Positions 9,301 to 31,209 of a DNA stretch of 64,000 nucleotides are shown here, piece after piece. The first letter of the stretch is position 1, and each line of letters begins with the position of its first letter. This stretch comes from Acidobacteriota bacterium (GTDB lineage: Bacteria; Acidobacteriota; UBA890; WLXD01), in the NCBI GenBank assembly GCA_963666215.2, contig CAXWPL010000002.1, positions 1-64,000 of the forward strand, in the 5' to 3' direction. The translations under genes and the position numbers were made by a program. The notes beneath the pieces were generated by a model. That model was not told the DNA's origin. It saw only the letters and a program-made list of their open reading frames with translations, and made no database searches.

Positions 9301-9431
9301 GGTCTGGCCGCCGGGTAGATGTGCAGCCGAGGTATATGACCCGCCCTCGACGCCTTCTCAGCACTTGCGCTAGCCGAAATCCGAGCGATTGGAAGATCGA
9401 CCTCAATCAGCCGCTTGCAGTACCTATCCAT
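6369..9431 (-). CDS. DUF1156-family N6-adenine DNA methyltransferase
   Basis: KRLIEVDLP N-terminus, motif I DPFAGGGAIP, motif IV FTDPPYYD, SWPIDTE and ALASSVHIVCRPR. Confidence 0.9.
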   Translation of the reverse strand: MDRYCKRLIEVDLPIARISASASAEKASRAGHIPRLHIYPAARPTGACRAVLCAALWPDPCDLPTAGQSSGTDREHTAIDQYLSAARLILCCWGREHLDLASEDSFRYLNRVSRDPGSLEAAEEIRLGLLHFIADFSDQTKSDEDFFVQSASRLTKLAHRVIAEADGDRPIVVDPFAGGGAIPLEALRVGAQAYASDLNPVAVLLEKVLLEYLPVFADDISHRLHDWLGWAKTRATDRIGRFYPGRSDGSKPVVYLWARTVLSESPEESAHPIEVPLLNTMWLAKKGGKKRALRWVRSAAEEVLTEVATRTLANGEVVTVRRPLLEVFEPKNSEDVAVGTVARLAATCPVTGYTTPTERVAAQLRARGGGTNDARLYCVVVDPPKGRRDFVLPEEAELRAAESASDELRRLEAKPDRNGLSIYPREPLPPRGTLGFRVQRYGMSLWCDLFTPRQLLALITYSDLVGEYLEDLGDCDPELRRGVAAALGLVVDRLADLNSSLCRWQLNTRNPVNTFNRWALPMASDFGEVNPLAGAGGSPESTIRRAQTVVARQARNAGRVAWVSQGSATELPLPDDSVHALFTDPPYYDAVPYADLLDFFYVWLKRSVGFYFPELFGAELTPKAEEICEMGGGASGRDEHKNAAFFETEMARALGEARRVVRPEGIGVVVFAHKSTQGWEAMLQALIEAGWTITASWPIDTELRFRLRARGSAALASSVHIVCRPRENPDGSLQADDIGNWREVLAELPKRIHAWMPRLAEEGVVGADAIFACLGPALEVYSRYSSVERASGEEVTLKEYLGEVWAAVSHEALNMIFEGADASGFEEDARLTAMWLWTLHTGSSDRQEGVPERAKSLPGYGLDYDAARKIAQGLGAHLEDLSTLVEIRGATATLLSAAARVRYLFGKDAMEAPRGRKAKKPQMTLDFAEEVRELEAEYGNWADDLSAGPGLTILDQLHQSMILFGAGRGVALRRLLVEDGVGRNPLFWRLAQALSALYPSVTEEKRWADGVLGRKKGLGL

Positions 9432-12400
9432 CGGATGTCTGCGCCTTCAGGATCTCGGTCGCTCCAACGTGGTAGTGCTCCACCTTCACTATCGGCTTCC
9501 ACCCGAGGCGTGCTGGGTCCTGGACCAGATGGACCTCGGGCTGTGAGGCGCAGTTGAAAACCACGTAGAGCCAATAGTCCTCTTTGAGCCGCTCGGCGGT
9601 CCGGTACTCGTTGGTCGTCAGAGCAACTTCGCCAACATGCGAGCGCCCCTTCACTTCAATGAATCGCACGCCAATAGCCGTCTCCGGGTCCTCGGGGTGC
9701 GGCTTGCGCGAGATGAGGTCGAAGCCCCGGTTCTCCTTCTCTACGCTTTCGACACTCCATCCACGAGCCTCTTCGTACTTGGTCACGGCCTCGACGGCGA
9801 TCCTCTCAATCTCCGGATCTGAAACCATCCCCCTCGTCTCCGGGTCCTCGCGGGCCGGGTGTGGCAGGACCCACGCGCTCCCGAGGTGCTGGATGTTCGT
9901 CACCGTGCACTGCCGCTCTTTCTCCAGGTCGACCCTTCTGCGCTCCAGGCGGTTGTTGAGTTCGTCGAGCCGATCCTCCTGAATCTTCAAGCGACCGTCG
10001 AGCCCCGGTTCGTCCGATCCGGCCTGCTTCCGCTGGATCAGCTCGCCGAACTTCACCTGCTCCCGGTCGATGATCGCGTTGAGGCTGATCTCCAGGTGTT
10101 CGGTGATGGTCTGGATCTCCTTCGCCCTCAGGGCGACGGCCTCGTCCAACAGACGCTGTAGCGCCTGGTCGTAAAGGCTTGCTTCTAGCTCATCCCTGCC
10201 CGGCAGCCCTGTGAGATCAGGAGCCACTGTTCCCTTGGGCGATACCGAGAGATCCAGGAAGATCGTGGGCTGGCGGACGGAGATCTCGCCGTCCATCGCC
10301 GCCTGGGTGACGAAGAGCCGCTTGTGGAGGATCTGGCCGAGCCCGTCGCGGACTTCTGCCGAGAAGACGTCGAGTTTCACGGGCTCCGCTCGGTTCAGGT
10401 CGTAGAAGACGGCTCCTCGCTCCAAGTCGCCCTGGACTCTGTCCTGTGTGAAGGAGCGGATGCTCTCGAACAGCGGATGGCCGGGGGTGACCCACTCCAA
10501 GGTTGGGTCGCCCGGGAGGAGCTCCTTGTCGAAGACGACCCGCTTGTAATCTCGGCCGAGCTTCCCGAATTTGGACTCCAGCCGTTCGCCATAGGGCGCG
10601 AGGGCTCGCGGGAGGCGGCCCACTCGGTAAATGTGCTCCTGGCCTCTTTCCGGTTTGGGCGTGAGGCCGGCAGACGGCGCAGCTTGGACGAAGAACTCCT
10701 CGATGACCTCGGGAACCAAACGGCGCTCTTTGGCCTCTTCGGACTTCCCGACGATCGCCGAGAGATTCAGCTCGCGCTTCGCCAGCCCTTCGAGGGCGGA
10801 CTCGGTGATCTGCTGGAGACGCGCAGTGTCCACATCGGTGACGATACGGTCCATGATCGCCTGCTCGGTCAGGTTGCGGGCGTACATCTCCCGCAGCATT
10901 CGCTCCAGGTGCGTCGCCGGGAACACATCGCCGAGCACGTTGAACACCTTACCCGTGCGGTCCGGGTCGAGGTCCTCCTCGATCTTCTCGATGCGCTCGA
11001 AGAGCTTCTCCAGAACCCGTCCCTCGCGGGTGTTGCTGCTGACGAAGTTGATGATCAGGCAGTCCTTCTCCTGGCCGTATCGGTGAATGCGGCCCATCCG
11101 TTGTTCTAGGCGGTTCGGATTCCAGGGAATGTCGTAGTTGATCATGTACCAGCAGAACTGGAGGTTGATCCCCTCGCCCGCCGCCTCCGTTGCGACGAGG
11201 ACCTGGCAGTCTTCCTTGAACTCCCGCTCGGCGTAGATCCGGGATCCAGGGGTGTCCCGGTCGCCGATCTTCATGCCGCCGTGGATCTGCGTAATGTTGA
11301 GGCCCCACTCCCGGAGCTTCCCGAGGGGTCGTCCGTCGCGGCCATCGGCGGCTAGGTAGTCGAGGGTGTCCTTGTGCTCTGTGAAGACCAAGAGCTTCAT
11401 CTTGGGATCAGAGAAGATCCCCTTCTCGGTGATGACATCTCTGAGCTTCTGGAGCTTGGTCTCGACCTCCCGCTCTTCGAGCTGGACAGCCTGCTTCGCC
11501 AGTTTGCCCAGATCCAGGATCTCTTCCCTGAGGTCCTCGGGGTTGATCGATGCAACGACTCCCTCCAGGTCCTCCAGAATCTGCGTCTGGGCATCCTCAG
11601 GGAGATCCTCGAAATCGTCGGGGATTCGCTTGAGGATCTGCTCTTGGCGGTAGCCCTCTGGGTCTTCCAGGATTTTCTCGCGCCGGGCTTTCATCCGCTC
11701 CAGCGTGCGGCGCACCGCGTAGATGCTTGAAGCGAAGCGGCGCTGGAGCATCGCCATCGTGAAACCGAGGGCGCGGCCACGGGCGGAACTATCCTGGACC
11801 GCCTTGATCGACTGGTCTTCGACGTAGCGGGTGAGGCGGTCGTAGAAGTCGAGTTCCTCGTCGTCGATCTGGAAGGCGATGGTCCGGACGATACGCTTGG
11901 TGAAGAGACTCTTCGCCTGCCCCGTGTCCGGATCGGGGAAGGTCACTAGAGCCTCCTTGACGCGGCGGAGGTAGAAGGGGGCCTCCCGCTCCTCCATGGC
12001 CTTCTCAAGGCTCTTCACGTCGCCGTAGACATCTGGGTCCAGGAGGCGGAGGAAGAAGCCGAAGTTCACCGGGTCGCCCTTGTGGGGCGTCGCCGTCATC
12101 AAGAGGTAGTGGTCGGTCCGCTCGGAGAGAGCCTCCCCGAGCTGGTAGGCGAGGGTCTTCTTCTCCTCCCCGTAGGCGCTCATCTTGTGGGCCTCGTCCA
12201 CGATGACGAGGTCCCAGCGGCTCCGCATGAGGCTCTCGTGGGCGTCCTCAATACGCGAAACCCAGGAGACCGAGGTAATGCACTGGTTGATCTCCTGCCA
12301 CGGGTTGACGCCGTAGTTGGACCGGAGGAGGTGGCTGCGGACGATCTGGAAGCTCTCCCGAAACTTGTCCTTCAGCTCCCGCTGCCACTGGAAGCAGAGG

Positions 12401-12876
12401 TTGGCGGGCGTGACGATCAGGACGCGTTGGATGAGGCCCCGGACCTTCAGTTCCTTGATCAGAAGCCCGGCCATGATGGTCTTGCCCGCGCCGGGGTCAT
12501 CGGCCAAGAGGAACCGGATGCGAGGGATCTTCAGGAAGTAGTCGTAGACGGCCTCCAACTGGTGGGGCAGAGGATCAACACGGGCGATTGAGAGGCTGAA
12601 GTATGGGTCGTACTCGTAGGCAATGCCGAGGCGCATCGCCTCGATACCGAGCCGGAACCTGGCCGCGTCGCCGTCGAAAAGAGGAGTCTCAGGCGTGGGC
12701 TCTAGCTCGGCGACCTGGGCGGAGGAGAGGACCGGCTGGTGGACCTGCCCCGTGCGCATTCCCTCGCCGATCAGCTTGACAGAGTCCCCCAGTGGGACCG
12801 TCTTGATGATCTTGACCGGCTCGGGAAGGACCGACCCTCGAACAATCAGGTCCGGCTTGAGATCGTCACTCTTCAT
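9424..12876 (-). CDS. SNF2-type helicase with C-terminal DUF3883 (NOV-C) nuclease domain
   Basis: ADDPGAGKT, DEAH, TATPH, EAAGEGINLQ, QRMGRIHRYGQ; C-terminal GFDLIS...FIEVKG. Confidence 0.9.
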   Translation of the reverse strand: MKSDDLKPDLIVRGSVLPEPVKIIKTVPLGDSVKLIGEGMRTGQVHQPVLSSAQVAELEPTPETPLFDGDAARFRLGIEAMRLGIAYEYDPYFSLSIARVDPLPHQLEAVYDYFLKIPRIRFLLADDPGAGKTIMAGLLIKELKVRGLIQRVLIVTPANLCFQWQRELKDKFRESFQIVRSHLLRSNYGVNPWQEINQCITSVSWVSRIEDAHESLMRSRWDLVIVDEAHKMSAYGEEKKTLAYQLGEALSERTDHYLLMTATPHKGDPVNFGFFLRLLDPDVYGDVKSLEKAMEEREAPFYLRRVKEALVTFPDPDTGQAKSLFTKRIVRTIAFQIDDEELDFYDRLTRYVEDQSIKAVQDSSARGRALGFTMAMLQRRFASSIYAVRRTLERMKARREKILEDPEGYRQEQILKRIPDDFEDLPEDAQTQILEDLEGVVASINPEDLREEILDLGKLAKQAVQLEEREVETKLQKLRDVITEKGIFSDPKMKLLVFTEHKDTLDYLAADGRDGRPLGKLREWGLNITQIHGGMKIGDRDTPGSRIYAEREFKEDCQVLVATEAAGEGINLQFCWYMINYDIPWNPNRLEQRMGRIHRYGQEKDCLIINFVSSNTREGRVLEKLFERIEKIEEDLDPDRTGKVFNVLGDVFPATHLERMLREMYARNLTEQAIMDRIVTDVDTARLQQITESALEGLAKRELNLSAIVGKSEEAKERRLVPEVIEEFFVQAAPSAGLTPKPERGQEHIYRVGRLPRALAPYGERLESKFGKLGRDYKRVVFDKELLPGDPTLEWVTPGHPLFESIRSFTQDRVQGDLERGAVFYDLNRAEPVKLDVFSAEVRDGLGQILHKRLFVTQAAMDGEISVRQPTIFLDLSVSPKGTVAPDLTGLPGRDELEASLYDQALQRLLDEAVALRAKEIQTITEHLEISLNAIIDREQVKFGELIQRKQAGSDEPGLDGRLKIQEDRLDELNNRLERRRVDLEKERQCTVTNIQHLGSAWVLPHPAREDPETRGMVSDPEIERIAVEAVTKYEEARGWSVESVEKENRGFDLISRKPHPEDPETAIGVRFIEVKGRSHVGEVALTTNEYRTAERLKEDYWLYVVFNCASQPEVHLVQDPARLGWKPIVKVEHYHVGATEILKAQTSDG

Positions 12877-12939
12877 CCGCCCCATCCCTCGCCACGGCGT
12901 TGCCACTCGGTGATCGCAGCCTCCGGCTGGCTCACGCCG

Positions 12940-13040
12940 ACCTGCTCACCGTCCGTGTTGCTGCCCAGCAGGTCGGCAGCTTGCCAGAGCTTGGCCTCGA
13001 AGCCGAGGTTGGCGCCTGGGTTCTTGTTCTTCTTGGCCAG
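12940..13040 (-). pseudogene. hsdM: 5' relic of a type I restriction-modification methylase gene
   Basis: (L)AKKNKNPGANLGFEAKLWQAADLL matches the HsdM N-terminus; GAGGAGG RBS precedes a CTG where ATG is expected; similarity is lost after ~30 codons. Confidence 0.65.
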
Positions 13041-13280
13041 GCTTCGTCGCCCTCCTCGGTCACGAGATCGCGGAGCATACCGACAATCGTTCAGCGATTC
13101 CAAGAGCAAGCTCGCCGAACACACGATCAGCGTTCGTCGGGTGCGAACCCTTGTAACCGGTTACCAACCGCACGGCAGCTCGGGGCCACCTCGGAATTGA
13201 TTGACCTGCCCCCCCCAATAGTCGGGCCAGTTTGAGAGTTAGGATTTGAGGCTCTCAGACGGGTTCGAGAAGGGGGATAA

Positions 13281-13559
13281 ATGGCACGGAAGCGCTACAC
13301 GGTCGAGCAGATCATCGGCAAGCTCCGGGAGGCAGAGGTGCAGTTGGCGAAGGGAGCCAAGACACCGGAGGTGTGCCGGGCGCTGGGCATCAGCGAGAAC
13401 ACGTACTACCGGTGGCGGAAGGAGTACGGTGGACTGAGAGTGGATCAGGCGCGGCGGCTCAAGGAGCTCGAGCGCGAGAACGCCCGGCTGAAGAAGTTGC
13501 TGGCAGAGACCATGCTGGACAACTCCATCTTGAAGGAAGCTTCGTCGGGAAACTTCTGA
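13281..13559 (+). CDS. IS3 OrfA
   Basis: MARKRYTVEQIIGKLREAE...GISENTYYRWRKEYGG...RLKELERENARLK. Confidence 0.9.
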   Translation: MARKRYTVEQIIGKLREAEVQLAKGAKTPEVCRALGISENTYYRWRKEYGGLRVDQARRLKELERENARLKKLLAETMLDNSILKEASSGNF

Positions 13560-14440
13560 GCCCGGCGCGGCGACGCCGGGCAGTGCGGAACGCACAGCAG
13601 TCGCTGGGGGTCTCCGAGAGGCGGGCCTGCAGAGTTCTCGGCCAGAGGCGCTCGACGCAGCAGTATCGAGCCAAGGTGCCTCAGGACGAAACGGCGCTCG
13701 TTGAGCGAATGAGTCAGTTAGCGACCCAGTATGGGCGCTATGGGTACCGTCGGATCACGGCGCTGCTTCAGGGTGAAGGCTGGCGCGTCAATCACAAGAG
13801 GATCGAGCGGTTATGGCGACGTGAAGGGCTGAAAGTGCCGCGCAAGCAGCCGAAGCGAGGACGTTTGTGGCTCAACGACGGGTCCTGCGTGCGGCTGCGG
13901 CCGGAAAGGAAAGATCACGTGTGGGCGTACGACTTCGTGCACGAGAGAACGCACGACGGGAAAGCGCTTCGTCTGCTGACGATCGTCGACGAGTACACAC
14001 GGGAGTGCCTGGCGATCGATGTGGCAAGGAGGCTGAACTCCGAGAACGTGCTGGAGCGGCTCGCTGAGCTGTTCGTGAGCCGGGGTGTTCCGGATCACAT
14101 CCGCTCGGACAACGGGCCGGAGTTCACGGCCCAGGTGGTGCGGGAGTGGCTTGGGCGGATCGGGGTCAAGACGTTGTTCATCGAGCCCGGCTCGCCCTGG
14201 GAGAACGGCTACGTGGAGAGCTTCAACGGCAAGCTCAGGGACGAGCTCCTGAACGGGGAGATCTTCTACACACTTAAGGAGGCAGAGGTTCTGATCGAGA
14301 GATGGCGCAAGCAGTACAACCGCGTGCGGCCCCATAGCGCGCTGGGCTATCGGCCACCCGCACCCGAAGCGATGTTGTTGCAGCCGGCTGCGCTCCGCTC
14401 CGCCGGCTCCAACAACCTCTTGTCAGCACCGATTCAATGA
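13556..14440 (+). CDS. IS3 OrfB DDE transposase (fused to OrfA by -1 frameshift)
   Basis: WAYDF, RSDNGPEF, PWENGYVESFNGKLRDE. Confidence 0.9.
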   Translation: MSPARRRRAVRNAQQSLGVSERRACRVLGQRRSTQQYRAKVPQDETALVERMSQLATQYGRYGYRRITALLQGEGWRVNHKRIERLWRREGLKVPRKQPKRGRLWLNDGSCVRLRPERKDHVWAYDFVHERTHDGKALRLLTIVDEYTRECLAIDVARRLNSENVLERLAELFVSRGVPDHIRSDNGPEFTAQVVREWLGRIGVKTLFIEPGSPWENGYVESFNGKLRDELLNGEIFYTLKEAEVLIERWRKQYNRVRPHSALGYRPPAPEAMLLQPAALRSAGSNNLLSAPIQ

Positions 14441-14474
14441 GTTAACAAGTGGCCCAAACACATGGGGCAGGTCA

Positions 14475-14729
14475 CTCACGCTCAAGCCAGACCCACGCCT
14501 CCATGAGGGCCAGGATCACCTCTTCCCGCGAGTCCTGCGGATACTCTTGCACTGTGTGTTCGAGACCGAAGTTGAACCGGTTTAAGTTTCTCTGTTCGGA
14601 GGCAGGGAGACGGTTGAGCCGTTCCACCAGTAAGCCGGCAAGCTCCTCGGGCTCAAGCGCGAGCACAACCTCCGGGTCGGGAATCAGCGAATGGATGGAG
14701 CCAGGGACCGCGCCTCCTGTGTCGTTCAT
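14475..14729 (-). pseudogene. N-terminal part of a TIGR02391/Ymh-type protein truncated by the IS
   Basis: LIPDPEVVLALEPEELAG...ALMEAWVWLERE ends exactly at the IS right end; the remainder is absent on the other side. Confidence 0.65.
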
Positions 14730-14793
14730 GCTTGCCCTCTCGTGTCGTTGATCTCGTTAGCCAAGAGGAGATCGTCCCTCGCTCCAGCGACGG

Positions 14794-15084
14794 TCACGTG
14801 CTGGTGACCTGCCATCCGCCGCGACGAGGGCGACTCACGAAGTCCCCCGCCCGTGTTTCCGCGCCCCACTCCCGCGGGTCATCCATCCAGGCGTTGATGT
14901 CTGTGGCCCAGTGCAGGGAGCGCTCGGCAGTCGCCTTGATCGGCTCCGGGAACTTGCCGACTCGGCGCAGGTGCCAGCGCGTGGGTCGCGACAGAATGCC
15001 CTTCAACGCCGCTTTCAACACGTGCGGCGACTTCTTCGCCGGTGAGCCTATGCTGGCCGACAGCGTTGCATGCGCCTTCGTCAT
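14794..15084 (-). CDS. AlpA-like HTH regulator
   Basis: GILSRPTRWHLRRVGKFPEPIKATAERSLHWATDINAWM follows the AlpA pattern (LSRxTxxRxxxxGKFPxPI...W...I.AW). Confidence 0.55.
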   Translation of the reverse strand: MTKAHATLSASIGSPAKKSPHVLKAALKGILSRPTRWHLRRVGKFPEPIKATAERSLHWATDINAWMDDPREWGAETRAGDFVSRPRRGGWQVTST

Positions 15085-15085
15085 T

Positions 15086-16685
15086 TCAGAGCATCCCGAT
15101 GCGCTGCGGTCCGCCGGGGATGAATTCTTCTTCTGCCGAGCTTCCGGCCTGCTGTTGCTCGCCCCCGTGGGCACGTGCCACGGCGCGGAACATTTCATCC
15201 CAACTGCCACTGACGCCGAGTTGTCGTGCGCGCTCGGCGAGCGAGCTCGTATCGGCGCAACCCGTCGCGGCGGTCTCTCTTGCGCTCAGGACGATGCCCC
15301 AGCGCCGGCGCTTCCCTTCCGCTATCGCAACCAGCGCACCGGCGACAGCGTTGGCGACGTCATCGTGGCCGCCGGGAGCATGATCTAATGCTGTCGCGGC
15401 CACCACGGGCCACACGCCTCTCGAGGCCACCGAGCTGGGCTGCTAGTCGCGGCAGATCTAGCAGCTCGATGCCGCCACTGTTGAGCGCGGGCAAGAACTC
15501 ACGGTACAGATCGGACTTCGCCTTGTCTGCCGCCTTGAGGTCGATCCCCTGCCGTCTCATCGCCTCTGTCGCGAAGTCGGCAGCGTAGCGATCGGCCGTC
15601 GCGCGGGTGACCCGGTAGCGCTTCAGATCGCCGGCGAAGTCGCGACACACCTGCTCCGGAGAGAACGGCGGCCGGACCTCTCGCACCAGGTCCAGGACGC
15701 CCATGCTGCGCTCTTCGCGGAACTCGAGGTGCGCGATCGCCAACGTAGCGGAGTCCTGCCCGGAGCCACCCGCAAAGTCAACGAAGCCGCTGTATGACAC
15801 GCCGGGCACGGGTGGCAACTCGTGACGATCGACAACAGTGCAGCCATCGACGACCTCGCGGGAAATGAACCCAGAGACGTCAGTGCGGAACTGGGCCCCG
15901 TACTCGGCCGCGGCGGCAACCGGATCCACCTCATAGGCCCGGTCGATGATCTCCTGGGGGACGGCTGGATTCAGCAGACGTGTCTCGGCCTGTACCACCA
16001 GCACGTCACCGTCGACTCCGTAGTGATGACGGTGTGCCCGGTAGAGCTCGCCTTTGCGGGCGTAGGGGCTCGACACGCATAGCAACATCGCCCCCGGCAC
16101 GGTGGCCATCGCGGGACGCAGGGCGGCGAGGATCTCGCGGTCCGGATTCGCTGCGTCGTCCGTCGGCCAAAACGCGATCTCGTCGAGGATGGCGCCGACG
16201 ACCGTATAGCCGCGCACGCTTCTGAAACTTGCCGAATGGATCTCGATCGACAGGCCGTTGGTGAGTTGGATCTCCGTCTTCGTCTCGTGTGCGATGAGCT
16301 GCTCGAGCACCGGCGTGCTGTGCAACAGGCCACTAATGTAGCGGCGCACGACGCGCGCCTGTCGGCGGTCGGCGGCGATCACCATGAAGGTGCCTACCTC
16401 ACCTCGAGCGAGCTTGTACGTCCGGCACGTAGTCAGGTACACGGCCACCAGCGCCGCGATGATGCTCTTGCCACCGCGCCGACCGGCGATCGCCCACACC
16501 TCGCGGGCCGGAACGGTCGGCGCCGTCGACCTGCCCGTGAGCTCCTCGAATGCCTCGAGCTCGGCGTCGGTGAGGGGCAGAGCGAACATGGCTTTCAACA
16601 GCACACGCCAGCCGTCCCACGTCTCGCCGGCGAACTGGTTGCCGAGCACCTTCGACATCAGCGTCAGGATCGAGCGGCTACTCAT
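15086..16685 (-). CDS. terL: Terminase large subunit (frameshift at ~15386 in the nuclease domain)
   Basis: Walker A AGRRGGKS, Walker B AILDEIAFW, SSP coupling motif, RNase H-like FVDFAGG; the last acidic motif DHAPGGHDDVANA lies in the next frame. Confidence 0.8.
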
Positions 16686-17214
16686 CGTCCATCACCTCCG
16701 CCAGTGTCTGCGCCGGCCGCGGCTCCCGTCGGAGCCCGACGAGCCGCAGGTGTCTTTCTGTTCGATCAAGCGCAGCACACCAGATCGTGAACGCGTGCCT
16801 TGTCTTGCCCTTGACGGTCAGCGGTCCGCCCTGCTGAACCATCCGCGTGAAGGCACTGTCTCGAACCAACGCGGCCTGCGCAGCGCCGTCGGCGGCGAGC
16901 TCCAGGGCCCGCGGAGCGTCGTAGAGCTCGTAACCGGCGTCGGCGATGATCGCGTCTCGGATCTCACGCTGGGCTTCGGCGTGCTCGCGCCAAAAGGCGG
17001 CGCTTCTGTGGCCAACGACGAGAGCTAGGTCATTGCCGGTGAGGACGTGGCCAGCAGCGCAACGATCAGGGTGCTTCGTGCTTGCGCCGGCGCCACAGCG
17101 GCAGACGGCACCGGCGCGGCTCGCACAATCGTCGTCGAGCGATCGCCGCCAGTCTCGATGCGCGGCGGCGGCAGCTTCCTGCTCGAGCATGTCGGCGGCG
17201 ATATCGTCGCTCAT
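16678..17214 (-). CDS. Putative terminase small subunit
   Basis: Overlaps the terL start; tail GPLTVKGKTRHAF...LRLVGL resembles P27-type TerS; Cys-containing N-terminal part. Confidence 0.5.
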   Translation of the reverse strand: MSDDIAADMLEQEAAAAAHRDWRRSLDDDCASRAGAVCRCGAGASTKHPDRCAAGHVLTGNDLALVVGHRSAAFWREHAEAQREIRDAIIADAGYELYDAPRALELAADGAAQAALVRDSAFTRMVQQGGPLTVKGKTRHAFTIWCAALDRTERHLRLVGLRREPRPAQTLAEVMDDE

Positions 17215-17630
17215 GGGGCCACCTCTACCGCCTGTAGGTCATGGTCAGGGATGCCGGCGCATGTAGTGGGCGATTCACCCGGCACATCGCGGCACGTCGT
17301 CTCGACGTAGCTGCTCTCGTGGATGATCGCCAGCAAATCGGTGAGCGTCAGGATCGCCACCCACTCAGACGCGTTGCGCCGATGCGCCACGATCGGCAGC
17401 TTGTCGCCAGCGTCGCGTCGCGCCTGGGCGACGGCGTCGTACAGGGACAGCCGTTCGGTTCGCTTTGCTTCGAAATGGATCGATGGCAGGGAGGGCACGA
17501 TGACGTCGGGGCTGTCCGGGCCGCCCCGGTGCTGCTGGCCGCGGCGTGCGTCGAAGCCTTCGGCGGTGAGGATGGCTGCGAACTCCACGTCGCCGCGCTT
17601 GCCCTTGTTGTGGGAGCGGTCCCCGCTCAT
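17211..17630 (-). CDS. Phage Holliday-junction resolvase-like PD-(D/E)xK nuclease
   Basis: SHNKGKRGDVE...SPDV...HFEAKRTERLSL...PIVAHRRN. Confidence 0.75.
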   Translation of the reverse strand: MSGDRSHNKGKRGDVEFAAILTAEGFDARRGQQHRGGPDSPDVIVPSLPSIHFEAKRTERLSLYDAVAQARRDAGDKLPIVAHRRNASEWVAILTLTDLLAIIHESSYVETTCRDVPGESPTTCAGIPDHDLQAVEVAP

Positions 17631-17972
17631 GGCGCCCTCCGGGAACGGGCCGTGAGCGAACCAAGGGTGCTGAACGGTGGCACTCGCGCCGCAGATGCCT
17701 TATCTGACCTTCGGGCTGTCACCCTGACTTGCTCCTGTAAGTCCCTATCATTCAACGGCTTTCAAGCGTCCATGCCACGGAATGCCGCGGCTCGCAGATG
17801 CTCGACGAGCCCGGCGCGCAGGTCGAGCCGTACGCGGAAGAATGCGAGGAAGGAGGGGCGGGAACGGCCGCGGGTATGGGTGCCAACAAAGAGGTCCGGA
17901 CGTAGGCCGGAGCCCGGCGCCGCCGTGTGGAGAGATCGGCAGTAACGCCCGTGTGAGCACCGACCCGGCCCA

Positions 17973-18110
17973 TACGCGTCGTACACGTCCGCCTATATAG
18001 GACGTAACGCGCGCGCGTTATTCGGATAGCTATACGTCCAAAAAGGGAGCACCCGTACGATGCGTATTCCCGGGCGTACGCCCAAAATCGGCGCACCCGT
18101 ACGACGCGTA
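17973..18110. repeat. Putative replication origin: iterons and palindromes
   Basis: GCACCCGTACGAYGCGTA at 18049-18066 and 18093-18110, inverted core at 17973-17984; palindromes CCTATATAGG, TAACGCGCGCGCGTTA and GGGCGTACGCCC, directly downstream of the primase gene. Confidence 0.6.
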
Positions 18111-18113
18111 CGC

Positions 18114-20408
18114 TCATGATCCTGGCCCTCCCCCGGGCTCTGGCATCAGCCCGCGATATCCGCGCTGGTTGGAGCGCGTGAGGGGCTCGAAGCCGCGATC
18201 CTGTAGCTCCTGGCTGAGGCGTTTCTTAGAAATCACGAACTCGCCGCCGGTCTCGGCCCACTGTCGCCAGCTCTCGTAGAGATCTGCGGACGATGCCCAG
18301 CGCTGGGGATTCTCCGTGACGCGCTCCTCCAGCCAACGGCCCACAGCGTCCTCGCCGGCGAGATACTCGTCGGTCGCCGCCAAAACAGCCCCCGGTGGAT
18401 CAAGCCCCCGTTCCTGCCATTCGAGGCAGCCGTCGATTGCCCAGCGCAGGATGCCCGGCCACTCGGCGCGGAGCTTCTCGGGCAGCTTCGGGTCCTGCTC
18501 GGCGGCCGGGATCTTGACAATGAACGGCACAAGGTGAAGCCGGCGTCGGATGCCCTCGTCCACTCCGCGCAGGGACGGCTTGCGGTTGCCGACGATGAAC
18601 AGTTTGAAAGTCGGGTCAAACTCGAAGAAGTCCTGCCGCATGAACCGCGCCGCGATCCGGTCGCCGCCGGTGAGCGACTTGATACGCCCCTGGGCCCAGG
18701 TCCTGCCGACCTCTGTCTCGGAACCGATCGCAAGGCGCACACCCCCAAGCCGCGCCAGCTCAGTCGGGTGGCGCTCGTTTCGCGTCACCATCAGCATCTC
18801 GGTCGGCACAGTGTTGGCGTAGTCGCCGAGGACGCCTTGTACTGTCCCGGTGAACACGCCCTTGCCATTGGCGCCGGTCCCGTAGCCGAAGACGAAAGCA
18901 TGCTCCTCGATGCTGCCGGTGAGCGCATAACCGGCGAACCGCCGCAAGTACCCGCTCAGGTCCTTGTCGTTGTTCTTGTCCTCCGCCATGATGCGGCGGA
19001 GGAACGTGTCCCATATGGGCGTCGGCGTACCGGGTGGCGCGGGCTCGACGGCGGTCGCCTTCATGATGTAGTCGTGTGGTCGTGGGTCTCGCAGCTCGCC
19101 AGTACGCAGGTCGACGGTGCCGCCCGGCGTGCCGAGCAGCATCGGGTCGCGGTCCCACTGGCCGACGTTGGCGGCCTGGGTCTCGTTGGAGCGAGCGAGG
19201 CCGATCACCTGGACGACGGTGTAGGCGCTCCGGAGCTTGTCGCCTTCGCGCTGCGCCCACTTTCGGAGGTCCTCGGCCGCCTTCGCGTCGAGGCCCTCGG
19301 CCTTGCGCTCGGCCCACTCCGCCACCTCCTCGGCCTTGTGTCGCAAGAAGCCACGGCAGCGCGTCATGTGCAGCCGGGTCTCGTCCGTCGCCCAGCGAGC
19401 CTCATCCCAGAACAGCCACCGCCCCCACTTCGCAACGTACCGCGCGTCGGGCCAGCCCTCGCCGAGCTTCAGGGCCAGGCTGTCATGTGTGAGGCCGTGA
19501 TCCTCGGACCGCTCTCTACGTCTCCGGGCGGCGATCCCCAGCAGGCGCGCCACCTGCCGGTCGTCCTGGGTCGCCGAAACCTGCCCGTGCCGGTAGCTCC
19601 TCAGCGCGGCCTCGATGGCCTTGTCGGGGAACCCCATCGCGCCGAGCGTTGCTGCGAGGCTCGCATCCAGCCCGGATCCGGACTTGTCCCCTCCGTCCTT
19701 TTCACCTCGCCAGAGCCGGCCGGCTGCGGTGGTCTCGTCCTCCAGGGCGGGCCACAGCTCCTCGGGGATTTCTGTTGAGCCGGTGGGTTTGCGCTCCCGG
19801 CGGGCGCCCCCGCCGTTGCGCATGGCGTGCTCTGCCAGCTTGGCGCTCAGGCGGCCCCAGGCCTCGCCGGCGTCCGCGATGCCCCCGCCGTTGACGGCCT
19901 CGCCCGTGAGCGCGAAGTAGCGACCCGAGACGTACGCTTCGAGTGCCGGACGCTTGCCGTTGATCGGTTCGCCCGACATCGGCAGCACCGAGGCCGGCAA
20001 CGCGGCAGGTGCACCCCGCGCGAGGATCTTGACCCCCGTACCGCTGGGGCTAATCTCGGTGTAGCTGTGAAACTCCTCAATGGCCCCCCGCGCCCACCCA
20101 GCGATCTCACCCGTCTCCGGGTTGCGGCACGCGTCGAGATCAACCCCTCCGAGCCCGCGCCCGAGCACGATGCCGATACCGGAGTAGCCTTCGCGGACAT
20201 GTGCCTGGACCGCGTCGTGGAGGGTCGACCACGTCGTGGGATCGGTCGAAGACGCCCGGCGCCCGTCCGGCTGGTAGGGGACCTTGATCGGCCTGCCTCC
20301 GCGATCTTCCGCCCGCCAGCAGACCCACCGTTGCTCGTCGGTGAGCTCGCCGAAAACCTCGGCGACACTGGCGACGTCGACCTCGACGCTCACGTTCCGG
20401 ACGCTCAC
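18114..20408 (-). CDS. P4/D5-family primase-helicase with N-terminal primase-polymerase domain
   Basis: GVDLDAC and YTEISPSGTG; SF3 Walker A GTGANGKG; IKSLTGGDRIAARFMRQDFFEF. Confidence 0.9.
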   Translation of the reverse strand: MSVRNVSVEVDVASVAEVFGELTDEQRWVCWRAEDRGGRPIKVPYQPDGRRASSTDPTTWSTLHDAVQAHVREGYSGIGIVLGRGLGGVDLDACRNPETGEIAGWARGAIEEFHSYTEISPSGTGVKILARGAPAALPASVLPMSGEPINGKRPALEAYVSGRYFALTGEAVNGGGIADAGEAWGRLSAKLAEHAMRNGGGARRERKPTGSTEIPEELWPALEDETTAAGRLWRGEKDGGDKSGSGLDASLAATLGAMGFPDKAIEAALRSYRHGQVSATQDDRQVARLLGIAARRRRERSEDHGLTHDSLALKLGEGWPDARYVAKWGRWLFWDEARWATDETRLHMTRCRGFLRHKAEEVAEWAERKAEGLDAKAAEDLRKWAQREGDKLRSAYTVVQVIGLARSNETQAANVGQWDRDPMLLGTPGGTVDLRTGELRDPRPHDYIMKATAVEPAPPGTPTPIWDTFLRRIMAEDKNNDKDLSGYLRRFAGYALTGSIEEHAFVFGYGTGANGKGVFTGTVQGVLGDYANTVPTEMLMVTRNERHPTELARLGGVRLAIGSETEVGRTWAQGRIKSLTGGDRIAARFMRQDFFEFDPTFKLFIVGNRKPSLRGVDEGIRRRLHLVPFIVKIPAAEQDPKLPEKLRAEWPGILRWAIDGCLEWQERGLDPPGAVLAATDEYLAGEDAVGRWLEERVTENPQRWASSADLYESWRQWAETGGEFVISKKRLSQELQDRGFEPLTRSNQRGYRGLMPEPGGGPGS

Positions 20409-20626
20409 GTTCCCTCACCCGACGGGTCCCACCACCGCGGTGGCCACGCAGGCTGGGCCCAGGTGGCCCGCCCGCACGCGTGGCACCGCAGCAGGGCGAA
20501 CAACGGTCCGGACTCGGGGCCCTCCGTGACGTTCACCGCGCCGCATGCCTGGCACCTCCGGTTCGTCAAGCGCGCTCCGCTACTTCGATGGGGGCGCCGC
20601 GGTGGCGAGGCGTCATGCGCGTCCAT
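20405..20626 (-). CDS. Small zinc-ribbon protein
   Basis: CQAC...CHAC; overlaps both neighbouring genes. Confidence 0.45.
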   Translation of the reverse strand: MDAHDASPPRRPHRSSGARLTNRRCQACGAVNVTEGPESGPLFALLRCHACGRATWAQPAWPPRWWDPSGEGT

Positions 20627-20816
20627 GGCCGTTCCCCCGTCCTCGGGCTCGTATCCACATTTCGAGCTCGCTGGCCCGGAATTTGATGTATCTCCCCACC
20701 CGGTAATACGGGAGGCGTGGTGGATCCTGTTCCACGGCGGCATACACCCAGCTTCGGGGCACGCCGAGTATCTCGCTCGCTGCCGCAACGTCGAGAAGAG
20801 GCTCAGGCCGCGTCAT
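20613..20816 (-). CDS. Excisionase-like HTH_17 protein
   Basis: PLLDVAAASEILGVPRSWVY...LPYYRVGRYIKFRASELEMW. Confidence 0.75.
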   Translation of the reverse strand: MTRPEPLLDVAAASEILGVPRSWVYAAVEQDPPRLPYYRVGRYIKFRASELEMWIRARGRGNGHGRA

Positions 20817-21023
20817 GGCCGAGTTTCTCGGAGGGCACGGGGAACAGGTCACGGACCCTAACGCCCAATCGACGTGCTCATAGCCGGCTCCGAGCGCAGC
20901 GGTGTCAGCTCACGCTAGACCACGCTCTACACGGGACAGCATCGGGATCGATACCCCGGTGAGGTCGGACACGTCCTCGAGCGTCAGCCGGTTCTTGTGC
21001 CGCCACGCCCGTAGCTTCGTCAT
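20813..21023 (-). pseudogene. Cro-like XRE HTH protein, frameshifted
   Basis: RBS GAGGAGG, MTKLRAWRHKNRLTLEDVSDLTGVSIPMLSRVERG then early TGA; ARRLGVRVRDLFP is in another frame. The 3' end is approximate. Confidence 0.6.
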
Positions 21024-21066
21024 GGTCGCTCTCCACCTCCTCAATAATTTGTGAGCACATGGTCGA

Positions 21067-21148
21067 AGTCTAGGCACACGGCAATTGCGCCGTCAATACT
21101 TTCTTGAAGAAATTCTACGATATTCGGAGACGGGACAGTTACCGTGTG
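21067..21148. promoter_or_regulatory. Divergent promoter region with an inverted operator pair
   Basis: 21075-21094 and the reverse complement of 21129-21148 match at 16/20; leftward TTGACG-N18-TAGACT overlaps the first copy. Confidence 0.6.
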
Positions 21149-21151
21149 GCA

Positions 21152-21964
21152 ATGAGCACGGCAAAAAACATCTCGGCTGTTGTTGGTGAGAACCTGCACA
21201 CGTGGCGGATGGACGCTGGTCTCACTCAGGATGAAGTTGCCCACTGGGCATGCTCGCTTGGGTTCGAATGGACTCAGGCAACCGTCGCTGCGATCGAGAC
21301 GGGCCGGCGTGAAGTCAGTCTCAGTCGAGTTCGTCGCCCTGCCCTTCCTCGCCCAACTAGCCGGTTCGGCCGACTCGTGGAACCGACTTGCCAGTTTCTT
21401 GCCTAGATGCGCCCGAGCCCGACACGGAATCGACGGGCGATGGCGACGACTCGAATGCTTCGGCTTTCGTGCTCGACTTGCGCACGTGCGGCGAGGTTCA
21501 GCTGTCGCCGGGTTGCTGGATTTACACCGAGCACCTCCGTGCTCTGCTGGGGGGACATCCGGCCGGGGGGCGAAAGGTACCAGAAGGACGCGCTGGTCAC
21601 CTTCCGGACTCTTGGGGAGTCGATTTCCTCCGTGCCGGAAACGATCAAGGCCTCATTGGAAGCACGCGCTAGACGATCTCGAGGCCGTTCTCCGAGCAAC
21701 GACGGCCTAGGCATCGGCCTCCTAGGCCCCCGAGATGCTGAGCAGAAGGCCGCGAAGAAGCTCGGCGTGACTGCAGACGATGTCTTGGCCGCCGCGTTGA
21801 CTCTGTGGGGGAAGACGCTGACTGACGAGCGCGACGCTCGAGCCGAGAAGCAAGTCAGCGGCGATGCGTCGCCCGGGCGATTGCAGGCCATTCGCGGCCA
21901 CATGACCCGCGACCTATTGAACGAACTTCAGCCCGTTCTCGAAAAGAAGGGAGACACGAAATGA
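21152..21964 (+). pseudogene. CI-like XRE repressor with about three frameshifts
   Basis: VVGENLHTWRMDAGLTQDEVA...WTQATVAAIETGRREVSL, continuing across frames to AEQKAAKKLGV...ERDAR...RGHMTR; ATGA overlap with the integrase. Confidence 0.6.
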
Positions 21965-23142
21965 GAGGAATCATCCGCACGCGCATCCTGCGAGACGGCA
22001 CCAAGCGCTATGACTGCCGATATCGAACCCCTGAAGGCGACCACCGGACGAAGACGTTCAGGCGGAAGAAAGACGCTGAGGCTTTCCTCGACAAGACGTG
22101 CGGCCAGCTCCGAGACGGAACCTTCCGCGAGGTTCAGCCGGCGCCGATGAAGAAGGTCTTCAAGACATGGCTCTCCGACGAGCTCGACGTCCGCCTTGCC
22201 ACTGGCGACCGCATGAAGCCGAGCACGGCCCGGACCTATCGCAACATCGTCGAGAAGCACTTCATTGACGCGTTTGGCGACTGCCCTTCCGACAGGCTCA
22301 CGCCGGCCGCGGTCGCCGCGTGGCGGAAGGAACTGGCCGCGAAGGTCGGTGAAGGTGAGATGAGCAAGAAGACGCTCAACAATCTGCTCGGTCTGCTCCG
22401 GCAAGTCCTGACGTGGGCGCGGGAGCCAGCACAGGGCTTCCTCAAGCACGATCCGATGCTCGGTATCAAGCGGATGCAGGTCGACCGCGCCGACCGTCGC
22501 GCGTCCCGTCGTGACTTCCTGCAGCACGAAGAAATGGCCGCGCTGCTCGAGGCGTGCGCAACGCCCGAGGAATCGGCCGCGGTTCACCTGGCGCTGTACT
22601 GTGGGCTGCGCCGCGGTGAATTACTCGCGCTCAAACACCGTGACATCGAAGCTGGCAACAACGGCAACGGTGGCCGGGTCCACGTGCGCCGCGCACTGTC
22701 GGCGGGCGAGGTGTCCACGCCCAAGACAAGCGGCAGCGCCCGCACCGTCGACGCACCACGAGACGTGCTCGCCGCTCTTGAGCATCTACGCGACACGGAC
22801 AGCGCCGGCTCCAACGATTACGTGTTCCGCACACCGAAGGGCACCCCGGTCGACCCCGACAACTGGAACACCCGCGTCTGGGCGAAGCTGCGGGAGCGTG
22901 CCGGCCTACGGAACTCGATCGGCCTGCACTCGCTGCGGCACACCTTCGCGTCGCTGCTGATCGACAATGGCGAGAGCATTAAGTACGTGAGCCGCCAGCT
23001 CGGCCACGCAAGTGCCTCCTTCACGCTCGATGTCTACGGGCACTGCTTCGAAGAGACCAGCGACCGCGCAATGGGACGCTTGCAAGAGGCGATCCGCGCG
23101 ACGAAGCGTCGCCGGTTCGATGTCCTCGAAGGAGGTGCCTGA
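21961..23142 (+). CDS. int: Tyrosine integrase
   Basis: Catalytic set GLRRGE (R), TPKT (K), HSLRH, LGH, DVYGH (Y); N-terminal arm-binding domain. Confidence 0.92.
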   Translation: MRGIIRTRILRDGTKRYDCRYRTPEGDHRTKTFRRKKDAEAFLDKTCGQLRDGTFREVQPAPMKKVFKTWLSDELDVRLATGDRMKPSTARTYRNIVEKHFIDAFGDCPSDRLTPAAVAAWRKELAAKVGEGEMSKKTLNNLLGLLRQVLTWAREPAQGFLKHDPMLGIKRMQVDRADRRASRRDFLQHEEMAALLEACATPEESAAVHLALYCGLRRGELLALKHRDIEAGNNGNGGRVHVRRALSAGEVSTPKTSGSARTVDAPRDVLAALEHLRDTDSAGSNDYVFRTPKGTPVDPDNWNTRVWAKLRERAGLRNSIGLHSLRHTFASLLIDNGESIKYVSRQLGHASASFTLDVYGHCFEETSDRAMGRLQEAIRATKRRRFDVLEGGA

Positions 23143-23301
23143 GTGGCCCTGGTCATGCCGCGAAATGCCACGGACGGAGCCGAAGCGGCAAGAATCAGCG
23201 GGAATCAGATGGAAGACAGGTAACCTGTAACCTGCTGACAACACGAAGGTTATCGACTTATCTCGAACGAGAAGGAATGAGCCGCAAACGCCCCAAACAG
23301 A

Positions 23302-23344
23302 CTCATAACCCGAAGGTCGCAGGTTCGAACCCTGTCCCCGCTAC
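23302..23344 (+). repeat. attR-like 3' half of initiator tRNA-Met
   Basis: CTCATAACCCGAAGGTCGCAGGTTCGAACCCTGTCCCCGCTAC runs from anticodon loop to acceptor end; no 5' half upstream; 160 bp from the integrase stop. Confidence 0.85.
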
Positions 23345-23610
23345 ACCTAGCGTCGCCGAGCGAAACCGCGCGGCGGTCTAAACGCCACCCGCCGCACACG
23401 CTTGTCTGGAACCACGCGCCTGGCTGTCCTCGCGCCCCTCCGCTTGGGAAGGAAAATGGGTAGGAGACGCCCATCCATTTGGGCTCTTTGAGGCTCTCCA
23501 GCAGAGGCGCGGAGAGAAACGCCTAGATGGCCACGCGACAGCGGTTCCGCGTGTAAATACAGGCGTTCAGGGGGGTTGCTCGCGAGGCCCGAAAAAGGGC
23601 GGGCAGAGTC

Positions 23611-23631
23611 TTTTGAATCCGGCGCGTCTGC
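23611..23631 (-). repeat. 21-bp exact copy of part of tRNA-Leu(CAA) (31171-31191)
   Basis: TTTTGAATCCGGCGCGTCTGC occurs at both sites in direct orientation. Confidence 0.8.
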
Positions 23632-23655
23632 TGATCAGCAGGGACGTCCGCTGAG

Positions 23656-25173
23656 TCAGCGCGCCAGAGCTCGCCCCACGAAGGCCTTCATGTCGGACTT
23701 CATCTTGGCCAGCGATGGCTCGTCGATGTACATCATGTGTCCCGCCTCGTAGGTCTCGATCGTGACGCGGTCGCGCAGGCCGGTGAAGTCGAACTGCGAG
23801 AACGTGAACTCGGGCCAGAAGTAGAGCTTGTCGTAGAAGCCATCGGCGACCATCACGTGCAGGTGCGGATTTTGCGCCATCGAATTGCGAAGAGTCTGAA
23901 GCAGGTTCATCCCGGGGGGTGGATCGGCCCACGGTCGCACGTCGCCCGAAACCGCGTAACCGAAGTCAGGGCGATAGCCGAGTTCTTCCCGAACGTAGCT
24001 GTTGAAGGTCTGCGTGAACGGCCCGCGGATCGCTGCCATCGCCGCGTCGTAATCGTAGGTCTCCCCGCCCGAGTCGAAGTCGTTGCCGGTGAAGCGTGAA
24101 TCGAGTCGGCCCACCGTCCGTCCCTCGGCGCGCAGCAGTTCCTTGCGGTAACGATCCATGTCGAGCCGGAAGTGAATCGCGTCGACGTACGCCTCGGACA
24201 GTCCGGTGTAGCGCGCGACCCGGCCCACGATGCCGGCTCGCTCAGACGCGGTCAGCTTGTTGCCCTGCAGCAGCGCCGTCGCGTACTCGCCGAGAGCGAA
24301 CGCCTTGGCCTTTGCGAGAGCCTCGCGCAGCGGCAAGGCCTGCAGGTCGGCGGGCAGTTTCCCGTGATACCAGGCGGTCGCGGTGGCGTGGGGAAGGCTG
24401 ATTGCGTGCCGCAGGATTCCGAAATCGCCGAACTGATCGCCAATCGACCCCGCCGAGACCAGGATGAGTCCGTTGAGGTCCATCCCGTGCCGTCCCTGAA
24501 GGGAGCCCGAAAGGCCCGCCGCCCGGCGCGACCCATAGCTCTCGCCGATGATGAACTTGGGCGAGTCCCAGCGATCGTTCTGCGACACCCAGCGAGTGAT
24601 GAACTCGGCGACCGCTCCGATATCCTCCGCAAACCCGTGGAACCGACTGGCATCGACGCCGACCAGCGCTCGGCTGAACCCGGTCGAGACGGGATCGATG
24701 AACACCAGATCGGCGACGTCGAGCATCGAGTACTCGTTGTCGATCATCGCGGCCGGCGGGATCTCGCGGGCGAGCGAACCATCGCGGTGCACGCCACCCC
24801 CGTCGCCGAGCTGCACTCGCCGCGGTCCCAACAACCCCGTGTGCATCCACACGGACGCCGACCCCGGGCCGCCGTTGAACGAGAACAGCACGGGTCGTTG
24901 CGCCACGTCGGTGACACCGTCACGGACATAGGCGATGTAGAAGACGCGGGCGAGGGTCTCTCCGTCTGTGTCGATCAGCGGCAGCGTGCCGGCGCTCGCC
25001 GTGTAGCCGACCGCTTGGCCGCCGATCACCACGGAACCCATGCTGACGGCGTCCGCCGGCCAACGCCCGCCGGGCGGCTCTTCCTGCGCGGGAGCGAACG
25101 CCAGCAGGGCGGTGGCGGCGAACGCGAACGGTAGATAACGGAAACGGCGTGCCGGATTCGGAATGAGAGTCAC
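23656..25173 (-). CDS. Secreted S10 serine carboxypeptidase
   Basis: FNGGPGSAS, GESYG, YEAGHMMY; signal peptide. Confidence 0.9.
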   Translation of the reverse strand: MTLIPNPARRFRYLPFAFAATALLAFAPAQEEPPGGRWPADAVSMGSVVIGGQAVGYTASAGTLPLIDTDGETLARVFYIAYVRDGVTDVAQRPVLFSFNGGPGSASVWMHTGLLGPRRVQLGDGGGVHRDGSLAREIPPAAMIDNEYSMLDVADLVFIDPVSTGFSRALVGVDASRFHGFAEDIGAVAEFITRWVSQNDRWDSPKFIIGESYGSRRAAGLSGSLQGRHGMDLNGLILVSAGSIGDQFGDFGILRHAISLPHATATAWYHGKLPADLQALPLREALAKAKAFALGEYATALLQGNKLTASERAGIVGRVARYTGLSEAYVDAIHFRLDMDRYRKELLRAEGRTVGRLDSRFTGNDFDSGGETYDYDAAMAAIRGPFTQTFNSYVREELGYRPDFGYAVSGDVRPWADPPPGMNLLQTLRNSMAQNPHLHVMVADGFYDKLYFWPEFTFSQFDFTGLRDRVTIETYEAGHMMYIDEPSLAKMKSDMKAFVGRALAR

Positions 25174-31125: not shown

Positions 31126-31209
31126 TACCGAGGGAGGGACTCGAACCCTCACTCCCTTGCGGGAACCGGATTTTGAATCCGGCGCGTCTGCCAATTCCGC
31201 CACCCCGGC
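31126..31209 (-). tRNA. tRNA-Leu(CAA)
   Basis: GCCGGGGTGGCGGAATTGGCAGACGCG-CCGGA-TTCAAAA-TCCGG, long variable arm, GGTTCGAGTCC; CCA not encoded. Confidence 0.95.

Follow-up and report, generated by a model that had tools for sequence, protein, structure and literature searches.

An integrative, satellite-like element of Acidobacteriota that encodes a large terminase subunit without detectable portal or capsid genes

The window analysed here, the first 64 kb of contig C2 of an Acidobacteriota genome (G000; 4.65 Mb in five contigs, ~65% G+C, 91.7% complete), contains an element whose core, at 14,794-23,344, combines an integrase, a replication module and terminase genes with no recognizable gene for a capsid or portal. 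All genes of this core lie on the minus strand except those for the integrase and the repressor. The tyrosine integrase (21961-23142, plus strand, 393 aa) matches PF00589 (Phage_integrase; E = 7e-21) and PHROG 1 (E = 2e-68). It adjoins a repressor-like region (21104-21964, plus strand) in which a 100-aa open reading frame (ORF) of the HTH_31 family (21104-21406, E = 1e-7) is followed, after a stop and in the same frame, by a 185-aa ORF without a family match; no homologue of this region was found among the fetched loci. Divergent from the repressor is a short Cro-like helix-turn-helix (HTH) protein of 37 aa (20910-21023, minus strand), for which NCBIfam returned weak HTH matches (E = 1e-3), and beyond it lie an excisionase-family HTH protein (20613-20852, minus strand; TIGR01764, 29.2 bits against a cut-off of 28.8) and a small Zn-ribbon protein with two Cys pairs (20405-20626, minus strand). 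The latter has no family match in Pfam or NCBIfam and corresponds to an 82% identical ORF at the equivalent place in L005, a sister element in another Acidobacteriota metagenome-assembled genome.

The replication module centres on a 764-aa primase-helicase of the P4/D5 family (18114-20408, minus strand), which is recognized by D5_N (E = 4e-24), DUF5906, PHROG 1829 (E = 4e-121) and TIGR01613 (277 bits). Directly 3′ of its gene, a 34-nt unit occurs three times, twice in direct and once in inverted orientation (17972-18110), and the position and form of these repeats make them a candidate replication origin (ori). There follows a Holliday-junction-resolvase-like protein of 139 aa (17211-17630, minus strand), matched by PHROG 244 (‘RusA-like’, E = 1e-15) and by nothing in the Pfam and NCBIfam scans. 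Next come a helical, 178-aa protein resembling a small terminase subunit (TerS-like; 16678-17214, minus strand), so named from its place beside TerL in relatives and without a family match, and the large terminase subunit (TerL; 15086-16685, minus strand), which is split by a +1 frameshift and matches PHROG 2 (E = 6e-23) and PHROG 9 (E = 2e-15). The end of the resolvase-like gene overlaps the start of the TerS-like gene by 4 nt, and the end of the latter overlaps the start of TerL by 8 nt, an arrangement that appears operon-like. The last shared gene encodes a 97-aa AlpA/excisionase-like HTH protein (14794-15087, minus strand) with a weak match to PHROG 2790 (E = 7e-6) and none in Pfam or NCBIfam. 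The span from integrase to TerL is 8.1 kb, and we read the core as an integrative, self-replicating element with variable cargo beyond the AlpA-like gene.

The TerL of the window copy is interrupted. Its frame A (16685-15360, 441 aa) contains both the Walker A and the Walker B motif and ends just before the final acidic nuclease motif, and the last ~100 residues, which include that motif, are found in another frame (15388-15086). The C-terminal RNase-H-like nuclease is therefore not contained in one reading frame, whereas the copy on contig C4 of the same genome and the family at large have all acidic columns. Relative to this intact 532-aa paralogue (96.2% nucleotide identity), the frameshift is caused by one extra T at 15388. 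Both forms of the site are present in public assembled contigs, a count that is confounded by the C4 copy, and a residual possibility of sequencing error applies to the extra T.

No portal, capsid, protease or tail gene was identified among the element ORFs when window ORFs at 1-32 kb were scanned with Pfam, PHROG and NCBIfam, and none of the head genes of phage-inducible chromosomal islands of the capsid-forming type (cf-PICIs), namely those for major capsid protein, head protease, portal, head-tail adaptor/connector and HNH protein, was found among them. Across the whole genome, PF04860, PF05065 and four portal/capsid hidden Markov models (HMMs) built locally gave no match, and the same was true of local HMMs for protease, tape measure, neck and hub proteins. 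TerL does not lie beside any portal gene of its own genome, be it in the window, in the C4 element or elsewhere. A gene-transfer-agent-like cluster was considered and rejected, there being no portal or capsid gene present. These results bear on a first-pass annotation of the window, which had listed int, CI, cro, xis, Zn-ribbon, primase-helicase, ori, resolvase, TerS-like, TerL and AlpA genes followed by cargo. Every one of these features was recovered in its place, and the accompanying claim that the element has no capsid or portal gene was borne out and extends genome-wide to the models just named. The TerL that it listed is indeed a terminase, but one that is frameshifted in the window copy.

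With respect to the TerS-like protein, the assignment was made because of its fixed place overlapping the TerL start, the Terminase_4 family among its Atlas neighbours, its matches in BFVD and a shared C-terminal tail. Specifically, its neighbours in the Atlas carry PF05119 (Terminase_4) in 28% and 56% of members, and the top BFVD matches of its AlphaFold2 model (predicted local distance difference test score, pLDDT, 81.6) are mostly labelled ‘terminase small subunit/P27 family’, with E values of 0.04-0.6. Searches of Pfam, PHROG and NCBIfam returned no match, and relatives are labelled hypothetical in the source annotations. A Foldseek comparison of the fold with the PDB gave nothing at E<=0.001, a wide VIA-align search gave generic helical-hairpin matches only (Z up to 9.6, within the noise for helical models), and a profile search of PDB sequences found no meaningful match. 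The TerS-like proteins of the window and of the C4 element are 27% identical overall and have their last approximately nine residues in common (window 16678-16708; L001 ~8140-8173). This shared tail falls inside the 96% identical DNA block that was co-inherited with TerL, and its residues are a candidate TerL-binding tail.

The C4 element (L001; contig C4 553000-572000) encodes an integrase, an XRE pair, an excisionase, a DnaB-like helicase, the TerS-like protein, TerL and the AlpA-like protein, and after the AlpA-like gene come a primase, an insertion sequence (IS) and a type I methylase. A complete tRNA-Arg gene beside the integrase and a 47-nt copy of the 5′ half of that tRNA at C4 588371-588417, 32 kb apart, delimit the island, which looks intact. 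The distal repeat copies the tRNA 5′ half and not the usual 3′ end. TerL is also intact in L005; the AlpA-like gene after TerL is 98% identical in the C4 element and L005, and the junction of TerL, AlpA-like gene and cargo is alike in these two elements and the window.

Comparison of L005 with the window reveals a mosaic. The integrases are 98.5% identical, the primases 90%, and the C-terminal part of TerL together with the AlpA-like gene 98-99%, yet the N-terminal part of TerL is only 65% and TerS 36% identical, and such mosaic identities show that modules have been exchanged among these elements. The repressor/Cro region (window 20821-21948) is the sole part between integrase and primase without nucleotide homology to L005, the rest being 94-97% identical, which suggests a swapped immunity module. 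Relics of the family are also present in G000, comprising one TerL fragment and two TerS-like ORFs without TerL (C5:1390230-1390697, C5:1422948-1423379 and C3:177600-177959). Within the phylum, 15 of 301 sampled genomes (including G000 and the unpublished G152) gave a TerL match, with up to 5 per genome and some of them broken, and this patchy, multi-copy distribution is the pattern expected of a mobile element.

The intact TerL belongs to a large family, with >5,570 homologues in one database and 2,587 cluster representatives at E<=1e-30 in a library of 1.84 billion representatives. Among isolated phages, only 4 of 50,697 records matched it, the best of them sharing 31% identity with the query across 49% of its length. 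Pfam and NCBIfam scans revealed no curated TerL or TerS model for the family, and a TerL profile searched against PDB sequences found only weak matches, to two terminases (E ~4e-3). For a survey of gene neighbourhoods, a scan of GTDB with one genome per species yielded 462 confirmed loci, the best 80 of which were taken with 10-kb flanks; TerL was called in 78, the genome loci referred to below. A further 80 of 112 loci were taken from IMG/VR. ORFs were predicted with a simple home-made caller and clustered, and the cluster representatives and long flanking ORFs were annotated.

Portal/capsid HMMs built from relatives and searched in six frames matched none of the 78 genome loci. Similarly, none of 227 downstream ORFs (>=180 aa, within 7 kb) matched a portal PHROG, the only downstream matches to ‘major head protein’ PHROGs covering the protease part of fused families, and none of the 114 scanned upstream ORFs matched a portal, capsid or tail PHROG. 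An upstream tyrosine integrase was found in 39 of the 78 loci (36 of the 60 with a flank of >=8 kb) and a primase in 38, the median span from integrase to TerL being 7.6 kb. A TerS-like gene lies no more than two genes upstream of TerL in 45, and the order of integrase, replication genes, TerS-like gene and TerL is conserved among relatives. Taken together, these observations establish that the portal-less, capsid-less family of TerL elements is real and not a one-off deletion.

Relatives that do carry a portal came from IMG/VR and account for 33 of the 154 TerL rows that we compared, the other 121 being portal-less. Their TerLs are 40-50% identical to the query, and the downstream portal is of the Phage_portal_3 or DUF4055 type. 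The two groups differ in their neighbouring genes: a phage-type TerS (Terminase_2-type, upstream) was present in 18 of the 33 portal-bearing rows, a TerS-like gene in 1 and a recombinase within 10 kb in none, as against 2, 69 and 84, respectively, of the 121 portal-less rows. The resolvase-like family of PHROG 244 (cluster c58) is also found upstream of TerS in portal-bearing relatives. In a FastTree TerL phylogeny, the portal-bearing rows fall into several clades that alternate with portal-less ones (8 changes of the portal label are needed, at least 7 of them forced), and the element TerLs are therefore close kin of the TerLs of real phages. The window lineage is placed in a starred clade of six portal-less rows, itself nested in a 33-row group of weak support (Shimodaira-Hasegawa-like value 82) that includes 17 portal rows.

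Moreover, the portal-less TerLs retain the residues of the Walker and nuclease motifs. The G-R-x-x-G-K-S and D-E columns are invariant in TerL alignment A1, and the catalytic columns are kept in nearly all portal-less rows (K73 in 118/121, E169 in 120/121, and D303 and D365 each in 121/121). The dN/dS ratio was 0.05-0.28 in all 15 pairs involving portal-less loci, and purifying selection thus acts on the portal-less TerLs.

Four whole contigs of IMG/VR, 8,231-9,819 bp in length, have direct repeats of 60-123 bp at their termini and look like complete genomes, and none has a portal. Two of them (L090 and L092; 9.4-9.8 kb) have no capsid gene and encode a repressor, an integrase, an O-like replication protein, TerL, a 245-aa protein, a neck-like protein and a tape measure protein; the other two (L111 and L156) encode TerL and a capsid protein. 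L090 and L092 are part of an alphaproteobacterial branch (with L053, L067, L069 and L077) in which TerL is accompanied by an all-helical protein of ~245-270 aa, a neck/tail-completion-like protein and a tape measure protein, with no portal or capsid. For the 269-aa protein encoded after TerL in alphaproteobacterial relatives (cluster c38), the predicted structure was all-helical (pLDDT 84.5) and matched nothing in BFVD at E<=0.001. A further type of small element, represented by L111, L156, L106 and L117, combines TerL with a capsid protein of the HK97 type, in some cases together with a protease, and has no detectable portal.

In terms of boundaries, the right end of the window element is att-like. 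At 23302-23344 (plus strand) lies the 3′ half of a tRNA-Met of the initiator type, which runs from anticodon loop to acceptor end and shares 93% identity with positions 33-75 of a tRNA-Met that is intact in genome G301; nucleotide homology with L005 stops exactly at 23344. ARAGORN called no tRNA at 23302-23344, and an elongator tRNA-Met was ruled out as the source of the fragment by the intact G301 gene, which is of the initiator type. The core of this tRNA 3′ half recurs neither elsewhere in the window nor as a flank of the element in the assembly. The left end of the element is for this reason undefined, and it may lie beyond the contig start, which would place the cargo described below inside the island. 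The G000 assembly holds no intact initiator-type tRNA-Met but one 5′ half cut in the anticodon loop, on contig C5, and four separate 3′ halves on two contigs (pieces at C5:536700-536737, C5:534271-534314, C5:442589-442631, C5:439986-440029 and window 23302-23344); the sister genome G301 has seven tRNA-Met 3′ halves, one of them in the intact gene. These scattered halves suggest repeated insertions into the tRNA followed by rearrangement. Just beyond the element, a 282-bp repeat (23350-23631; 92% identical to C2:660618-660898 on the reverse strand) terminates in a stretch that shares 21 identical nt with the tRNA-Leu(caa) gene at 31171-31191, and it resembles the terminus of a further integrative element.

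On the cargo side, the first gene is an 85-aa ORF (14472-14729, minus strand) whose end runs into the terminal repeat of an IS and which is 75% identical to an ORF upstream of the type I methylase gene in the C4 island. The IS belongs to the IS3 family (13198-14478, plus strand), with an rve transposase (rve/rve_3/HTH_21) and 15-nt terminal inverted repeats. Beyond it lies a complete, three-gene Hma defence system (1224-12906, minus strand), composed of HmaA (9424-12906), HmaB (6369-9431) and HmaC (1224-4220), with PADLOC E values of 2e-194, 6e-105 and 1e-115, respectively. A second IS, represented by transposase genes, is inserted between HmaB and HmaC (4561-6059). Contigs of two public runs (X1 and X6) join window position 11003 to 24265 via 22 other letters, which maybe reflects another organism or a repeat.

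Among known systems, P4-like satellites resemble the window element in their TIGR01613 primase-helicase, a tyrosine integrase by a tRNA-derived site, an AlpA-like gene (a weak match here) and defence cargo. P4 is not known to have a terminase of its own and uses that of its helper together with a shared cos site, and it is defined by the Psu, Sid and Delta genes for capsid size and transactivation. The window element differs in having a TerL and in lacking matches to Psu, Sid or Delta in the Pfam, PHROG and NCBIfam scans. A tailed prophage would have capsid, portal, tail and lysis genes beside its terminase, and these were not found in the window element.

The closest parallels lie with the phage-inducible chromosomal islands (PICIs). 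Classical PICIs, as described in PMC10085698, are islands of ~10 kb with an integrase, a regulator of the AlpA, MerR or Stl type, a primase-replicase, a TerS that redirects packaging, and accessory or defence cargo. Integrase, regulator and primase-replicase are all present in the window element, as in SaPI-type and Gram-negative EcCICFT073-type islands, but classical PICIs have no TerL by definition (PMC10085698), whereas here TerL belongs to the conserved core, and genes for capsid morphogenesis were not found. For cf-PICIs, with EcCIEDL933 as prototype, an integrated island is described with integrase, regulator, primase/replication genes, TerS and TerL, and a TerL lineage separate from that of isolated phages (10.1101/2022.09.08.507074; PMC10085698). 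The integrase, regulator and primase-replicase module again has a counterpart in the window element. As for the terminase pair, TerL is present but frameshifted, and the TerS-like gene is a candidate identified by position and neighbours and not by a family match. The difference is that the major capsid, protease, portal, adaptor/connector and HNH genes are in neither the window nor the C4 element; this comparison is one of gene content. As far as the accessible sections of these reports go, TerL is described only in capsid-forming islands (PMC10085698; 10.1101/2022.09.08.507074; the VEIME paper).

The EPIPs of Mycolicibacterium, satellites of ~11 kb with a partial set of virion genes that includes TerS and a tape measure protein (PMC12822802), recall the alphaproteobacterial branch (including L090 and L092), with its TerL, neck-like gene and tape measure protein. 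EPIPs differ, in a comparison made by description only, in that a small but no large terminase is named and in their serine integrase and adaptor, stopper and capsid-related genes (PMC12822802). A search of open-access literature, confined to main texts without supplements, yielded no description of satellites that have TerS and TerL yet lack head genes.

The reading that best accommodates these data, and one that we hold with somewhat more confidence than doubt, is of a widespread satellite family that has its own TerS-TerL motor and uses the procapsids of helper phages. The cycle would begin when a helper phage with a TerL of the same clade infects or is induced, whereupon the element would excise and replicate. 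The TerS-like protein would then mark the element DNA and recruit the element's own TerL, which would dock on helper-made procapsids and fill them with that DNA, so that core and cargo would be moved to new cells. We infer the helper dependence, the TerS function, the docking on a foreign portal and the packaging itself. On a broader scale, it is about evenly balanced whether these elements form a cross-phylum satellite superfamily (Acidobacteriota, Alphaproteobacteria, Nitrospira, Binatia and others) that is united by an element-specific TerS-like protein and a full TerL. Its minimal members would have the motor only and take the procapsids of helpers with same-clade TerLs, and other branches would have added protease, capsid, neck, tape measure or hub genes.

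Several observations weigh against this satellite reading. No helper has been identified for the element, and because portal and capsid genes are missing from G000, a helper could only be external. Support for the TerS assignment is weak, with no family match, structural matches at E values of 0.04-0.6 and nothing in the PDB. The window copy is itself probably defective, given its TerL frameshift, the IS in the first cargo gene and the missing second att copy. Terminal repeats such as those of the small contigs can also arise from circular or tandem DNA without packaging. The family is, furthermore, not uniform: a head protease occurs in 6 portal-less genome loci (L007, L021, L022, L031, L073 and L084), a scaffold-like gene in one portal-less relative (L036), tape measure, neck or hub genes in about a dozen portal-less loci, mostly alphaproteobacterial, a capsid protein in 7 IMG/VR loci, and a second type of portal in four relatives. 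Finally, the survey reached 10 kb to either side of TerL in the best 80 of 462 loci, relied on the home-made ORF caller and covered 114 of 160 long upstream ORFs.

Three other explanations were weighed with these points in mind. The element could be a decayed prophage or capsid-forming island from which the head genes after terL were deleted, perhaps by an IS, a scenario to which the window copy lends itself through its frameshift, its two IS copies and its lack of a second att copy, and which the few relatives with a portal or capsid gene also favour. A deletion of this kind is hard to reconcile with a TerL/AlpA/cargo junction shared by the intact C4 element and L005, with the purifying selection on portal-less TerLs and with terminally repeated contigs of 8.2-9.8 kb that leave no room for a head module. 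The first-pass annotation had reasoned that, were this a deleted prophage or a cf-PICI, close homologues would routinely have portal and capsid genes after terL; such genes were seen in 0 of the 78 genome loci within ±10 kb. We consider decay very unlikely. The first-pass proposal of a possibly undescribed satellite class fares well insofar as the portal-less TerL family is real and has a conserved gene order, but it has to be tempered for the heterogeneity of the family, the probable defect of the window copy and a use of helpers that is inferred.

A functional alternative is that the TerS-like/TerL pair serves not in transfer of the island but as a defence or interference module that acts chiefly on invading phages, for instance through cleavage or mis-packaging of their DNA or occupation of their portals. 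The first-pass annotation had likewise raised a role of TerL as a DNA translocase or interference factor, which may yet apply. The islands do carry defence cargo (Hma in the window, a type I methylase on C4), the element TerLs are close enough to phage TerLs that they could compete for their portals, and the lack of helper or particle evidence for the element also suits this idea. The complete small contigs, however, contain little beyond an integrase, replication genes and the TerL operon, and the tight link with an element-specific TerS-like gene fits self-recognition. We therefore regard interference alone as unlikely, although interference and self-packaging are not mutually exclusive. It is also conceivable that the element is an autonomous integrative replicon that does without capsids, with the resolvase-like, TerS-like and TerL proteins processing concatemers or aiding excision or maintenance. 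This would be in keeping with its own primase-helicase and ori-like repeats, with the absence of structural genes and with the fact that no helper was seen. We nevertheless give it little credence, because the ATPase (translocase) and nuclease motifs are both conserved across the 121 portal-less rows, the nearest relatives are packaging enzymes that adjoin portals, and the neck, tape measure or capsid genes of some members make sense only for virions.

Known satellites, in the accounts available to us, either borrow the TerL of a helper, as do P4 and the PICIs, or build their own heads, as do the cf-PICIs. If the satellite reading is true, an element that contributes the motor only would represent a third way of hijacking, between PICIs with TerS alone and cf-PICIs with a whole head. 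It would also mean that the portal of a helper can accept docking by a foreign TerL, which would make the specificity between TerL and portal a target of the conflict between parasite and host, and no earlier satellites would be known from these soil phyla. The idea is directly testable, since cultured strains are among the carriers: Rhizobium cremeum S302 (L067), Roseomonas sp. CCTCC AB2023176 (L078), Nitrobacter vulgaris DSM 10236 (L024 and L073), Methylobacterium platani PMB02 (L046), Bradyrhizobium sp. URHD0069 (L038) and Roseicella aquatilis (L050). Given that the family is large, nearly invisible in isolated phages, without a curated model and associated with defence cargo, it may be a major unrecognized vehicle by which defence systems move among soil bacteria.

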